From: a virus
Reading direction: 5' to 3' (one strand)
DNA: 64,000 nucleotides
IMG/VR virus record: IMGVR_UViG_3300025141_016306
Span: 18,617 to 82,616 of that record
Positions 55,441 through 59,083 of the stretch are shown here, in pieces. The position numbers were made by a program, and so were the translations under genes. A model generated the notes under the pieces. That model was not told where the DNA came from and made no database searches. It saw only the letters and a program-made list of their open reading frames with translations. Positions within the stretch are counted from its first letter, which is position 1. Each line of letters starts with the position of its first letter.

Positions 55441-55756
55441 TCACACCGGCTTTGGTGGAGACTGCCTGTATCGTCCTATAAATATATTTTGCTTTTAAAT
55501 AGTCTTTATCCGCCACACTGTTGGCAAAAATCTCCTCAGAAACGGTCCGGAAAAACATATTACAAATTTGAGTGGTAAAGTCGTGCATGTAGCGCTTATC
55601 TGATACAGGCGCGGTGCGAAAATAACGGCTGAAAGCTGGAGCGTTATCAATAAAAAAAGTTATCTTGTTGCCAGCGCGCTGGGGGATATATTCTACCTTG
55701 ATAGATAAATTGCCCGGAGTGCCTACATAATCTTGATTGCGAACATTGCCCCTCAT
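55424..55756 (-). CDS. Hypothetical protein
   Basis: 110-aa ORF coupled (ATGA) to the GAPDH-like gene. Confidence 0.55.
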   Translation of the reverse strand: MRGNVRNQDYVGTPGNLSIKVEYIPQRAGNKITFFIDNAPAFSRYFRTAPVSDKRYMHDFTTQICNMFFRTVSEEIFANSVADKDYLKAKYIYRTIQAVSTKAGVTIWTR

Positions 55757-56811
55757 ATATTAGTAAATAGATATTTATCAAAGGAGTCCATCATTTTCTT
55801 GTATTTTTTACCGTATGCGGCCCACATCGCTGCAGCACAACTGCTTAGTAAAGAATTTCCATCTTGAGGGGTGAAGCAAAATCCTGAAACAATAGTGGTT
55901 CCTGCGCACTGTTGGAGGTGCAGTGATGGAATTGAGAGGACGGTATGATTAAAGATTCTACCGTAATAGCCATGATCACGGCCGAAGGAAAACACTCTAT
56001 TGGCCGACGTCTTATGGGTAACAGCAGTAAACTTATTCTCTTGGAAACGACGTAGAATGTTTTCTCTTGAGGGAGATCCCTTGATCTTCACGCTAAATCG
56101 AATAATGTGCATATATTGAGTATTCAACTTCATAGCGCTAGAAAACAAATTTAAATGTTCCCCGCGAGTCGCAAACACATCTTGAGCGTCTCTCGCATGG
56201 TGAGTGCCGAAAATCGCATCTGAGTGTTGGCCAACCTCCGGGGAAGGAACAAATGAGCTTTTTTGGCTAATATCGTTGGATCTTCTTATACAAACGAAGT
56301 CGGCGGCAAGCAAGTCTTTCGGTGTGTCTACAAGTGTATTAATTAACGCGCATATATTGTGAGTATTGCAGCTTACCACTTGAATAAAGGGAGGTTTTTT
56401 ATCGAGGACCCCATCGTTGATGCCATGCGCGTAAGGCACTCCAAAATTCTTTTCGCTTCCCTGGGCTATAAAAATCTTGCCCGGGTGTTCGGCATAGTGC
56501 TTCTTTTTATGTTCATTACCAGCGGGGGTGCAATCAATTACAATATCCGCGGCCTTTAAAGCTGTCTGAAAATTATACTGTACCTCGTGACCTAGTTCTC
56601 CAAAAGCTGGAATCATATCTTCATTTGCTGCGAGTCGAGCGCCTCTTTTTATTAGACTGTTGACTTTTGCCACTTCATCTACCAGGGGAGTGCGCTTATG
56701 AAAAATGACATGTCCAAGATTTAACTTTTCTCGGAAATCTGAAAGTATTCCAATTAGTGGCTCGCCAATTGTACCAGTCCCCACTACTAATATATGTTTT
56801 TTAGTTGCCAT
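55753..56811 (-). CDS. Type II (archaeal-type) glyceraldehyde-3-phosphate dehydrogenase-like protein
   Basis: VVGTGTIG, DIVIDCTP, AQG, catalytic VVSCNTH, RRSND, HHARD, MH. Confidence 0.75.
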   Translation of the reverse strand: MATKKHILVVGTGTIGEPLIGILSDFREKLNLGHVIFHKRTPLVDEVAKVNSLIKRGARLAANEDMIPAFGELGHEVQYNFQTALKAADIVIDCTPAGNEHKKKHYAEHPGKIFIAQGSEKNFGVPYAHGINDGVLDKKPPFIQVVSCNTHNICALINTLVDTPKDLLAADFVCIRRSNDISQKSSFVPSPEVGQHSDAIFGTHHARDAQDVFATRGEHLNLFSSAMKLNTQYMHIIRFSVKIKGSPSRENILRRFQENKFTAVTHKTSANRVFSFGRDHGYYGRIFNHTVLSIPSLHLQQCAGTTIVSGFCFTPQDGNSLLSSCAAAMWAAYGKKYKKMMDSFDKYLFTNI

Positions 56812-56818
56812 GTTTCCC

Positions 56819-57025
56819 TTATTTCTTCTTGGTTTTCTTTTTGTTGGGCTTCGCGGTCGGTTCCGTCCATGTCTTGATCTTGAATTGGTTCCCGCCGGGG
56901 CCAGAACGCCTAATCTTCACCAAATCAAATTTATCTACTATTCCCATTTTTTCTGCGGACGCGTCTTCGTAAGTATCAAAAACGCCATAAGTCTTCCATG
57001 TTTTCTTTGGATTTTCTTCCATCAC
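56819..57025 (-). CDS. Small basic hypothetical protein
   Basis: 68 aa, GAGGTG RBS, TATAAT about 25 nt upstream. Confidence 0.6.
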   Translation of the reverse strand: MMEENPKKTWKTYGVFDTYEDASAEKMGIVDKFDLVKIRRSGPGGNQFKIKTWTEPTAKPNKKKTKKK

Positions 57026-57083
57026 ACACCTCTATAGCTTGTTACATAGATTATACAACATGTTTAGATTAAAATTAAGAAAA

Positions 57084-58238
57084 TTACATGCCGCCGAGAA
57101 GCGTCATTGCTACCAATCCAGGGAGAGGCTCTTTTATATAAACCCCTGAAAAAAGTGTTTCGGCTCTTCCGCCAACATATGAAAAAGCAGCTTCTAATTG
57201 GTTGCTGATTATAGGATCATTAGCCATTTCAGGAGTGGTAACCAAGAGCAGCACACCCATTTTGGGGTGCCGCGAAGGTTTAGAGCACGGGGAGGAATTT
57301 AAACATCCTTGAAGAACTGTTGCACCTAGATCTGAAATACGAGGATTACGGACTACAGTGCTTCCTAGAAGTATGCGTCCTGGCGCGTACAAGCACTTTT
57401 CAAGATCTTTTGAGTCAAATGCTTGGATTGGAGAAGCCTCCGTCGCAAGTTTGAGGATCTGCGCGAACAGTTTGGCAAAATTCAAGTTGGCCGCTGGGTA
57501 CATATTAAGCATCCCGACTTTTCCGCGCAGAAGATGGAGTTGTTTTTCGTTATCAATAACAATATGCGGCTCTTTTTTAACATCTTGCAACGCTTTATTT
57601 GAATTTGCTTTAATGGTAGGGTTTAGAAGTTCCTGCGCAGAGGGTTTACTAATAATATAAATGACTCTCCCGGTGGCCTCTATCGAAGACAGATAACGGG
57701 TTAAACACTTATGAAGCTCATAGGATGCGCTACCAGTTCCACCGCCACCTCCGACCAGTACAAACAGCCAGTCAACTTTACCAATTCGAGTCCTTAAGGC
57801 ATCCTCCACTAGTGCGCTATTGTCACCTAGAACTTGCTTTCCAAGTTGGATATCTTTACCAACACCGTCGGCACCCGGGATTAAAAGAAAATTTTCCGGA
57901 TCGATGCCGGGCGGCTGGTCTTTTTCCGTGGTATTGATTAGAAGAGTTTTATGAAACCCTAAATCCAAAAAGGCTTTCGCCATCTTTCCACCACCACCGC
58001 CTAGGCCAAGGAAAGCACATTTAATGGCGCTTGGTGCGGAGTTCTCCGGTAACATTTTTTCGTCAGGAGAGGGGTCGTCGCTGTACGCTTCAGCAAAATC
58101 AAAGTTATCGTAACCTAACGCGTCCTCCGTGGGCATATCCCAGCTACTAGTGGTTGACTCTTCATCTAGTTCTTCCGCGGGGGCCTCTACAGACTCCTCT
58201 TCATATTCTTCGTATTCTTGTTGATCGTCATCGCTCAT
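57084..58238 (-). CDS. Tubulin/FtsZ-family GTPase with an acidic N-terminal extension
   Basis: GLGGGGGK, INT...D, G.GK....G, signature GGGGGTGS, IVIDN, T7-loop-like FDSKDL; AGGAG RBS. Confidence 0.85.
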   Translation of the reverse strand: MSDDDQQEYEEYEEESVEAPAEELDEESTTSSWDMPTEDALGYDNFDFAEAYSDDPSPDEKMLPENSAPSAIKCAFLGLGGGGGKMAKAFLDLGFHKTLLINTTEKDQPPGIDPENFLLIPGADGVGKDIQLGKQVLGDNSALVEDALRTRIGKVDWLFVLVGGGGGTGSASYELHKCLTRYLSSIEATGRVIYIISKPSAQELLNPTIKANSNKALQDVKKEPHIVIDNEKQLHLLRGKVGMLNMYPAANLNFAKLFAQILKLATEASPIQAFDSKDLEKCLYAPGRILLGSTVVRNPRISDLGATVLQGCLNSSPCSKPSRHPKMGVLLLVTTPEMANDPIISNQLEAAFSYVGGRAETLFSGVYIKEPLPGLVAMTLLGGM

Positions 58239-58294: not shown

Positions 58295-58651
58295 TGGTGG
58301 AGACGTTGGGAGTCGAACCCAAGTCCAGAAAAGTTAACTGTTAACGTCATTCACAAGAATAGATGCAATCACCGCCGTTGCACCAGCCACCCAACATCCT
58401 ATCGGGGAATCCATTTGCCACTCTTAAAGGTGTTGGCTACCAAAATTATTTAGTTAATAACTAAATAAAGTTCCCTTTTTTTCTAATTTTTGATATCAAG
58501 GCAGTTAGAAAGCCCCGTGATTAAGCCGCTAGGGCGTAATCAAATTCAACGTTATCGTTGGCTTTTATAAAGGTTGAGTATTTTGGCTGTGTTACTCACA
58601 CAGTCTTGCACGCTAGTCAGATCCGTTTTCTGTCGAAACCGTTTCGTCCCC
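58295..58651 (-). ncRNA. ssrA: tmRNA (one-piece, 357 nt), tag peptide ANDNVEFDYALAA encoded at 58562..58521
   Basis: 5' GGGGACG...TTCGAC and 3' TTGGG-TTCGACT-CCCAA-CGTCTCC-A-CCA form the tRNA-like domain with the G3:U alanine identity pair and encoded CCA; internal frame GCC AAC GAT AAC ... GCC CTA GCG GCT TAA ends in the ALAA degron. Confidence 0.96.
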
Positions 58652-59011
58652 ATGTCTTTCCTTTTCAAAAAACGATTCAATATCGAATTTCTTAATTAGT
58701 TTTCTGAAGTCAGTATAGTCGATTCCTAGGAACTTTGCGCTTTCTTTCTTGGAGCGACATACACTAACGGCTGTTTTCAATACAGCGTCCTGAGTAATAT
58801 CCCGCATAGAATGCCACAAAGGTATACCGTAGAACTTACCGCCTAAAAATCTGGTAGAGAGTTCTAATTTAATAGCTATTAAATCTTCCAATGGAATATT
58901 GTTAATAGTATTAAGCGCTTCTTTATTTAAGATGTCTTCTTTAGTTAGTTTGTTTATTATACTATAATTCTTATAAAGACCGTAGTATTTATTTCTTTTA
59001 TTCCAAGACAT
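58613..59011 (-). CDS. Putative transcription regulator with a C-terminal Fis-like HTH; last 12 codons and stop lie inside the tmRNA
   Basis: DAVLKTAVSVCRSKKESAKFLGIDYTDFRKLIKKFDI resembles the Fis/NtrC HTH; 132 aa. Confidence 0.65.
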   Translation of the reverse strand: MSWNKRNKYYGLYKNYSIINKLTKEDILNKEALNTINNIPLEDLIAIKLELSTRFLGGKFYGIPLWHSMRDITQDAVLKTAVSVCRSKKESAKFLGIDYTDFRKLIKKFDIESFFEKERHGDETVSTENGSD

Positions 59012-59051
59012 ATAAATTAATATTACTTAATAATAATAAGTATTTATATAG

Positions 59052-59080
59052 ATTATATCATATTTGAAGGGATAAGTAAA
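59052..59080 (-). promoter_or_regulatory. Putative sigma70 promoter TTTACT-N17-TATAAT with extended -10 (TGnTATAAT)
   Basis: Seen directly upstream of the HTH/tmRNA unit. Confidence 0.6.
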
Positions 59081-59083
59081 GAA

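Follow-up and report, generated by a model that had tools for sequence, protein, structure and literature searches.

A putative Fis-like gene of a marine jumbo phage reads into the tmRNA gene behind it

Introduction

What happens to a regulator when the end of its gene is also the beginning of a tmRNA? The question is raised by a locus of an uncultured marine jumbo phage, in which the open reading frame (ORF) of a small protein with a putative Fis-type helix-turn-helix (HTH) enters the downstream tmRNA gene without meeting a stop codon. The maturation of tmRNA by RNase P and the tagging of the products of non-stop messages are both established (PMC3985003, PMC3989581), and an overlap of this kind would bring the two together on one transcript. 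A first-pass annotation of the locus had seen in it a possible sensor of trans-translation resembling that of arfA. On the comparisons set out below, tight packing of the genes accounts best for the layout, and the non-stop side-effect that would come with it may or may not serve regulation.

The window, the whole stretch of 64,000 nucleotides that was analysed, comes from a viral contig of 82.6 kb in IMG/VR. CheckV rates this contig as 26% complete, and the phage must therefore be jumbo-sized. Nearly all genes of the window lie on its minus strand, the HTH gene and the tmRNA among them (Table 1).

Results

The ORF ends inside the tmRNA

Both ends of the tmRNA are placed identically by ARAGORN and by the Rfam model RF00023, against which it scores 94.4 bits (cut-off 47) over model positions 1–374 of 374. 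The acceptor stem pairs GGGGACG with CGUCUCC, including a G3:U pair, the T-arm is formed by GGGUUCGACUCCC, the 3′ CCA is present and the tag ends in the hydrophobic ..ALAA, so that the features of a one-piece tmRNA are all found. The tag itself is kept throughout the clade. A search for SmpB found no gene for it on the contig of the window or in five relatives, among them a complete genome of 186 kb, and rescue would therefore depend on the SmpB of the host. Searches with Rfam gave no known RNA family, the glutamine riboswitch included, either here or in the spacers of the relatives.

Table 1. Features of the HTH–tmRNA locus, in window coordinates.
Feature	Position	Strand	Basis
Sigma-70-type promoter TTTACT-17-TATAAT, extended −10 (TG)	59052–59080	−	10/12 matches plus TG
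Inverted repeat TACTTA-N7-TAAGTA in the 5′ leader	59024–59042	−	Present, not above chance
HTH gene, 132 codons, stop TAG (58615–58613) inside the tmRNA	58613–59011	−	ORF and tmRNA coordinates
Residues 17–51, including the invariant LEDLIAIKLELS motif; predicted homodimer interface	58859–58963	−	Alignment and dimer model
Predicted long helix and Fis/NtrC-type HTH, residues 68–112	58676–58810	−	pLDDT ~90, structure match
Dual-use stretch, tmRNA nt 1–39 = codons 121–132 (GDETVSTENGSD) and TAG	58613–58651	−	tmRNA and ORF coordinates
One-piece tmRNA, CCA encoded	58295–58651	−	ARAGORN and Rfam RF00023
Tag reading frame of the tmRNA, ANDNVEFDYALAA and stop	58521–58562	−	ARAGORN, coding part nt 90–131

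The first-pass annotation had placed the 5′ end of the tmRNA exactly on the boundary between His120 and Gly121 of the ORF and had assigned the last 12 codons and the TAG to the first 39 nucleotides of the tmRNA. Both assignments are exact in the coordinates obtained from ARAGORN, RF00023 and the count of the ORF: codon 120 (CAT) occupies 58654–58652 and codon 121 (GGG) begins at 58651, which is tmRNA +1, with the RNase P cut predicted between 58652 and 58651. In RNA terms the dual-use stretch comprises the acceptor strand, the D-loop analogue and the start of helix P2. The arrangement is that of a CDS–t(m)RNA overlap, with the coding sequence upstream and in the same orientation, no stop before +1 and the stop inside. 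Across 39 distinct loci the commonest base at position −1 is U (24 loci), which fits substrates of RNase P. It had also been noted that the protein's folded part is complete before the cut, and in the structural model the HTH and the last helix (residues 111–119) do end ahead of it, the tail of residues 121–132 being disordered. The exact codon boundary was considered as a signal in its own right and discarded, as it would arise by chance in one case in three and related phages show entry in frame 2 or a TAG divided by the tmRNA end. It is the conservation across the clade, described below, that raises the overlap above chance.

A gene under purifying selection encodes a protein with a predicted Fis-like fold

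Pairwise dN/dS values of 0.05–0.19 show that the ORF is a real gene under purifying selection, as its earlier treatment as a translated gene had presupposed; pS is at least 0.6 even for the closest pairs, with synonymous sites near saturation. Its relatives number 118 when clustered at 90%, and the family comprises 534 clusters at 50% identity, all of them small stand-alone proteins from marine metagenomes. Among GenBank phages there was neither a DNA match for the region nor a protein match for the HTH gene, PHROG gave no match for the protein, and no Pfam family was found at E ≤ 0.1 apart from one unrelated weak hit, with HTH_8 (PF02954) unmatched. No Shine–Dalgarno sequence is seen ahead of the gene, while 27 of the 49 genes of the window have one.

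The AlphaFold model of the protein is helical, with a pLDDT of 75.6. Residues 68–112 superpose on residues 53–98 of Fis with a Z of 6.5 and an rmsd of 1.0 Å over 45 residues, a Z that is modest for a small helical domain, and the superposition on NtrC1 gives a Z of 6.0. Fis chains top the Foldseek list with probabilities of 0.94–0.96, but with E ~0.4, and a profile of the family finds PDB entries weakly, namely the DNA-binding domain of NtrC1 (4l5e, E 0.049) and Fis (1fip, E 0.39). The Fis-like HTH proposed in the first-pass annotation is recovered by fold, through the superposition and the weak profile hits, but not by sequence models, as neither Pfam nor PHROG recognises it; as a label for a modelled fold it seems reasonable.

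The protein is predicted to form a homodimer through residues 17–51 and 65–84. The model of the dimer scored 0.43, the best of three controls reaching 0.00; a score of this size is attained by 20 of 30 solved one-chain pairs and by 1 of 23 solved single chains. The runs share at least 78% of their contacts, with a partner pLDDT of at least 61. Since Fis dimers are already solved, this result may reflect likeness only.

The gene and the tmRNA are likely to be co-transcribed

The sigma-70-type promoter that the first-pass annotation placed upstream of both genes is well supported, with its 10 of 12 matches and extended −10. It lies 40 nt upstream of the ATG, is kept in four relatives (L004–L007) and is likely to be the start of the HTH–tmRNA unit. 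A near-twin of it (TGTTGTATAATCTATGTAA) stands upstream of the ORF at 55753–56811. The earlier proposal also presupposes that the tmRNA is not transcribed from a promoter of its own within the ORF. The promoter scan listed no promoter-like site there; the best candidate that can be picked out, TTCAGA-18-GATATT at 27 nt before +1, has 8 of 12 matches and is not conserved, reading GACATT in L004. No terminator is present between the ORF and the tmRNA. With no conserved promoter inside the ORF and a strong one upstream instead, the pattern of motifs suggests that the two genes are likely to be co-transcribed in the window. In more distant relatives the HTH gene is preceded by a TTGACA-17 promoter and the tmRNA by none, and the operon layout therefore appears ancestral.

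The alternative would be that the tmRNA is transcribed separately, from a weak or phage-specific promoter in the 3′ end of the ORF, with the regulator mRNA a minor read-through product and the overlap of little effect on either. Promoters belonging to the tmRNA do exist nearby in the tree. In close outgroups with short spacers (L047 and L202/L203) a TTGACA-17-TATAGT or TATATT promoter lies 26–42 nt before +1, straddling the end of the ORF, and L024 has a TATAAT 11 nt before tmRNA +1. In the window a weak promoter of this sort is possible, and TTCAGA-18-GATATT would have to supply it, but its poor match, its absence from the scan and its change in L004 all speak against it, as does the missing terminator. 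Moreover, even then a transcript begun upstream would fold and be cut, provided that it extended across the entire tmRNA. Separate transcription seems to us very unlikely.

The inverted repeat in the leader, to which the first-pass annotation had drawn attention, is present, but at chance level: 1197 of 2000 shuffles (60%) of the 72-nt spacer yield a repeat of at least 6 bp, and among the relatives only L004 and L005, with their near-identical leaders, retain it. It was accordingly dropped as a candidate operator. At the other end of the message, the 3′ end that the predicted cut would leave consists of an AU-rich hairpin followed by a 12-nt single-stranded tail; judged by eye, the hairpin near the 3′ end of the ORF is not conserved in the T1 sub-clade. 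A metatranscriptome run (4% of sampled words) returned contig pieces 85–95% alike that are confined to the body of the tmRNA, none bridging 58651 and none on the ORF. These are fragments of related tmRNAs, and they say nothing on transcription.

Read-in arose once and has stayed in one frame

Eighty IMG/VR loci encoding relatives of the protein were analysed with ARAGORN and for reading frame. A tmRNA follows on the same strand in 47 of them, and gene and tmRNA therefore form a conserved module. In 21 of the 80, as in the window and in L201, the ORF reaches tmRNA +1 without a stop; all of these read-in loci enter the tmRNA in frame 0 and stop at its nucleotide 33 or 39. They are the closest relatives, at 51–89% identity. 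The expectation of the first-pass annotation that homologs would likewise lack a stop before the tmRNA holds for this closest clade, down to about 51% identity and in the same frame, but fails in more distant relatives, 26 loci in which the ORF stops 35–1000 nt upstream. A further sub-clade of 26 loci is without a tmRNA: its proteins end in the tail FFEEEEKEVI, the next ORF overlaps the stop, and no tmRNA was present on contigs of this sub-clade that are 73% and 78% complete. The HTH gene is retained there.

A tree of the protein core indicates that read-in arose once, that a stop of its own was regained in P0018, P0019, P0024 and P0045/P0086 (the L024 type), and that the tmRNA was also lost. 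At the protein level, 51 of the 118 clusters have the C-terminus G[DG]E.[VA]ST, as results when the start of the tmRNA is read in frame 0, and no frame-1 or frame-2 tail was found among the 118 clusters or among 148 more distant cluster representatives. A tail of the frame-0 kind occurs just once in the latter, in P0259 (GGATVST, 37% identity to the query), where the sequence would be compatible with a possible second read-in event. The linker that follows FFx in the read-in clade is 1, 2, 3 or 4 residues long, the result of four indel events that are all in frame; four out of four has a p of ~0.012 if the frame is neutral, although four events are few.

The HTH gene is not the only one to end in this way. 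In the relatives two other genes, unrelated to it, end inside a tmRNA: a 78-aa ORF that enters in frame 0 in L064, L066, L068 and L070 and in frame 2 in L071, and whose stop in L079 lies 1 nt before tmRNA +1, and a DUF2061 membrane protein (Pfam E 2.5e-7) in L051. In a broader sample of 32 IMG/VR tmRNAs, two large ORFs end in a TAG of which the G is tmRNA +1. Repeated endings of this kind fit a tight packing that is tolerated in compact phage genomes.

They would also fit a purely neutral account of the locus, that the spacer was deleted, the ORF then ran on to the next in-frame stop, and neither the tail nor the non-stop fraction is of any consequence. With the HTH gene, three unrelated upstream genes in the lineage end inside tmRNAs, in frames 0 and 2, and the TAG stops that share their G with tmRNA +1 come from two other phages. 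The stop needed no invention either, since related tmRNAs without read-in already have one in frame 0 at nt 27–33, for which reason the stop inside the tmRNA was not accepted as an adaptation. Against a neutral by-product stands the behaviour of the HTH gene itself: its linker indels are in frame in every case, frame-1 and frame-2 tails are missing from all 118 and 148 family members, and frame 0 alone gives a tail like that of the family. We therefore think it unlikely, if not negligibly so, that the overlap is without consequence.

Frame 0 alone provides the acidic tail of the family

Translated in frame 0, the 5′ end of the tmRNA gives a tail of 10–12 aa with a median charge of −4, acidic in all 17 of the read-in loci examined. 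Frame 1 would give a tail of median 9 aa with a charge of 0 to +4, and frame 2 one of ~33 aa with a charge of +5 to +11. Homologs with their own stop have a median of 8 aa after the FF, with a median charge of −3, and 94% of them are net acidic. Only frame 0, then, yields an acidic tail like the one that is usual in the family.

It would seem from this comparison that the frame has probably been kept for the sake of the acidic tail. Selection on the frame is sensible only if ribosomes enter the tmRNA on the uncut precursor, because the tail has to be translated, and the tail is thus probably made from unprocessed precursor. Conservation of frame 0 together with the acidic tail therefore points to a full-length protein made from uncut RNA. 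The first-pass annotation had stated that every matured tmRNA leaves a stop-less mRNA behind. As a predicted consequence of the RNase P cut this stands, but the frame and the tail imply that uncut messages are translated too.

Discussion

The reading that we favour, with a probability of about 0.55, is that of a compact unit in which the 5′ end of the tmRNA has been co-opted as coding sequence, with the non-stop message as a side-effect. The upstream promoter (59080–59052) would drive a compact early unit, made up of the gene for a homodimeric DNA-binding protein of the Fis/NtrC type and then the tmRNA. In the read-in clade the spacer between the two would have been lost, so that tmRNA nt 1–39 now supply the HTH gene with its acidic C-terminal tail and stop. 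Ribosomes following close behind the polymerase would finish at the internal TAG and release the full 132-aa protein. They would get there before the 3′ strand of the acceptor stem is made, ~350 nt further on, and since RNase P needs the acceptor stem, early ribosomes could terminate first. Once the tRNA-like domain folds, the RNase P of the host would cut between 58652 and 58651, leaving a regulator mRNA that ends at codon 120 and has no stop. Later ribosomes would stall at codon 120 and be served by trans-translation, with the SmpB of the host and the tmRNA of either host or phage, and the tag would send their product to degradation. Each transcript would in effect carry an inherent limit on the regulator it yields, tied to the maturation of the tmRNA. 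It may also be that the cut mRNA is rapidly degraded and not translated.

The same steps could have been put to use. As an adaptive sensor in the manner of arfA, the proposal from which this work began, the locus would have its missing stop under selection: maturation of the tmRNA would make the mRNA of the Fis-like factor non-stop, and the abundance of the factor would report the capacity for trans-translation or RNase P cleavage. The 120-aa form would build up untagged only once rescue was saturated, and would then act back on its own promoter or on those of other early genes; the near-twin promoter in the window could be a common target. In a fuller version the factor would read out this capacity of the host and tune early phage promoters, and the acidic tail would distinguish the protein translated ahead of processing. 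ArfA and BrfA show that such a circuit can operate in cells (PMC3989581, PMC6881298). Overlaps with an upstream CDS are rare in bacteria (250 of 115,660 t(m)RNA genes, PMC4131195), yet they recur in this phage lineage, and the layout without a stop has endured, with none newly arisen in the linker, while synonymous sites diverged to saturation.

The closest clade is indeed predicted to have a stop-less message, but beyond this the sensor fares less well. The conserved frame and the acidic tail matter only if uncut RNA is translated. Most of the family of 534 clusters has its own stop, distant relatives included, and within the clade itself own stops have returned (the L024 type, P0018, P0019 and P0024). 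One sub-clade has lost the tmRNA and retained the HTH gene, in some relatives the spacer contains a canonical promoter for the tmRNA, and the unrelated DUF2061 and 78-aa ORFs read into tmRNAs as well. The proposed operator is at chance level, and the product, with its Fis-like HTH fold, is not a ribosome-rescue factor. We consider it quite unlikely that the missing stop was selected as a sensor, and would give equally little credence to the fuller version in which factor abundance tunes early promoters and the tail marks the pre-processing fraction.

If the non-stop fraction is used, the phage would have a simple means of coupling gene regulation to the translation quality control of its host, and the HTH protein would become the first example of a transcription factor linked to the status of ribosome rescue. 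If it is merely tolerated, the locus still lends itself to studying how RNase P processing competes with translation on one transcript. In either event the comparisons define an extensive family of Fis-like phage proteins that had no annotation and is genetically linked to tmRNA.

A message whose 3′ end is set by the removal of a tRNA-like element is familiar from the tRNA punctuation of animal mitochondria, where excision makes the preceding mRNA end at its final codon or inside it and polyadenylation completes the stop. We know of no such repair of stop codons in bacteria, and the product here would be a substrate for rescue.

The predicted protein resembles Fis and the C-terminal domains of the NtrC family (PDB 3iv5, 4l5e and 3e7l) in its long helix followed by an HTH, and a homodimer is predicted for it. 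It differs from them in an N-terminal half, with LEDLIAIKLELS, that has no counterpart there and in an extra C-terminal helix and acidic tail, and identity is ~20%. Among phage tmRNAs, that of the OM43 phage Melnitz is similarly placed, just 3′ of an early promoter and in an operon with a transcription-related gene, again with no smpB (PMC9004378). The Melnitz tmRNA is, however, in two pieces and preceded by a glutamine riboswitch, with no CDS read-in reported (PMC9004378), whereas that of the window is in one piece.

With E. coli arfA and B. subtilis brfA the locus shares the logic of a non-stop mRNA (PMC3989581, PMC6881298). The arfA and brfA mRNAs lose their stop through processing by RNase III or through an internal terminator, and tmRNA tags their proteins, which build up only if trans-translation fails (PMC3989581, PMC6881298). 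In the phage it would instead be RNase P that cuts, at the 5′ end of a tmRNA. ArfA and BrfA are, moreover, rescue factors whose regulation has been demonstrated by experiment, and they are the only proteins for which non-stop control by trans-translation is proven, whereas the phage product is a predicted DNA-binding protein known from sequence.

The nearest parallel in geometry is smpB–ssrA of Candidatus Carsonella ruddii, in which a CDS upstream and in the same orientation also extends into the tmRNA gene (PMC4131195). Hudson, Lau and Williams (2014) pointed out that the overlap with ssrA would make the smpB message non-stop on maturation and explicitly proposed a feedback on the protein that it encodes (PMC4131195). 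There the CDS is that of SmpB itself, in the degenerate genome of an endosymbiont, while in the phage it is that of a Fis-like HTH gene. The Carsonella overlap, the only CDS–tmRNA overlap described, occurs in only half of the strains, gives 'apparently random' extensions and looks like genome decay; the phage overlap runs through a deep clade of abundant marine phages, where the same geometry has long been kept in one frame, with an acidic tail that is like that of the family and looks functional. The idea of non-stop feedback is thus already published for Carsonella, and what is new here is a conserved phage case in which the 5′ end of a tmRNA is also the acidic tail and the stop of a regulator.

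Genes ending in or at tmRNAs

Each of L182 and L196, loci from a broad sample of 32 IMG/VR tmRNAs, has a large ORF (420 open codons in the first, 376 in the second) that terminates in a TA|G whose G is the predicted 5' end of the tmRNA (+1), so that cleavage by RNase P would take away the stop codon. At the related locus L051, the gene for a DUF2061 membrane protein enters a phage tmRNA for 36 nt in frame 0, the frame of the Fis-like HTH gene of the window.

In the more distant phages of L064, L066, L068, L070, L071 and L079, a second small ORF, unrelated to the HTH gene, lies between that gene and the tmRNA. It encodes 78 residues beginning MWKVYK, and neither Pfam nor PHROG gave a match to it. 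In four loci this ORF runs into the tmRNA in frame 0 and has its stop there, and L071 shows the same in frame 2. At L079 its stop falls 1 nt before tmRNA +1.

In the window itself the residues SFFE are encoded immediately 5' of the tmRNA as UCG UUU UUU GAA, and it is pure speculation that ribosomes might slip on this U-run into a frame ending at tmRNA nucleotide 8 or 35.

Features at or near the tmRNAs
Feature	Location	Strand	Pfam
ORF of 78 residues, MWKVYK start (also L066, L068, L070, L071, L079)	L064:2945-3181		no match
DUF2061 membrane-protein gene	L051:2869-3090		E 2.5e-7
Divergent tubulin/PhuZ-like protein gene	window 57084-58238	-	Tubulin, E 1.5e-4, below cut-off
U-run (SFFE codons)	window 58652-58690	-	
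Promoter with extended motif	window 56812-57083	-	
Promoter with extended motif	window 59052-59083	-	

Surroundings of the tmRNA and promoter motifs

The tubulin/PhuZ-like gene is the next gene directly 3' of the window tmRNA, with no terminator-like site between the two. Elsewhere the spacers between HTH gene and tmRNA are conserved, GC-richer and structured-looking, in one set about 200 nt before the tmRNA (L054, L056, L065 and L072) and in a second about 120 nt before it (L061, L063 and L076). One of these spacers carries a 9-bp GC hairpin 17 nt before tmRNA +1; no Rfam family reached its gathering score in them.

A sub-clade of 26 loci (L017-L042 and others) has lost the tmRNA, none being found on contigs 73-78% complete. 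The HTH gene is kept there with an acidic tail of its own, and its stop is overlapped by the next ORF in ATGA. In another sub-clade (L053 and L057-L059) a tRNA-Gly(UCC) stands in place of the tmRNA, about 150 nt 3' of the HTH gene.

The two window promoters have in common the extended motif TG.TATAATCTAT[AG]TAA and may represent a promoter class of the phage. The TATAAT promoter is absent from the more distant of the loci whose HTH gene reads into the tmRNA (within L009-L033). At a distance of 25-35 nt 5' of the start codon of the HTH gene they share T[TA]TATCA[TC]A, a motif that follows AATATAA and may be a different, phage-specific promoter.
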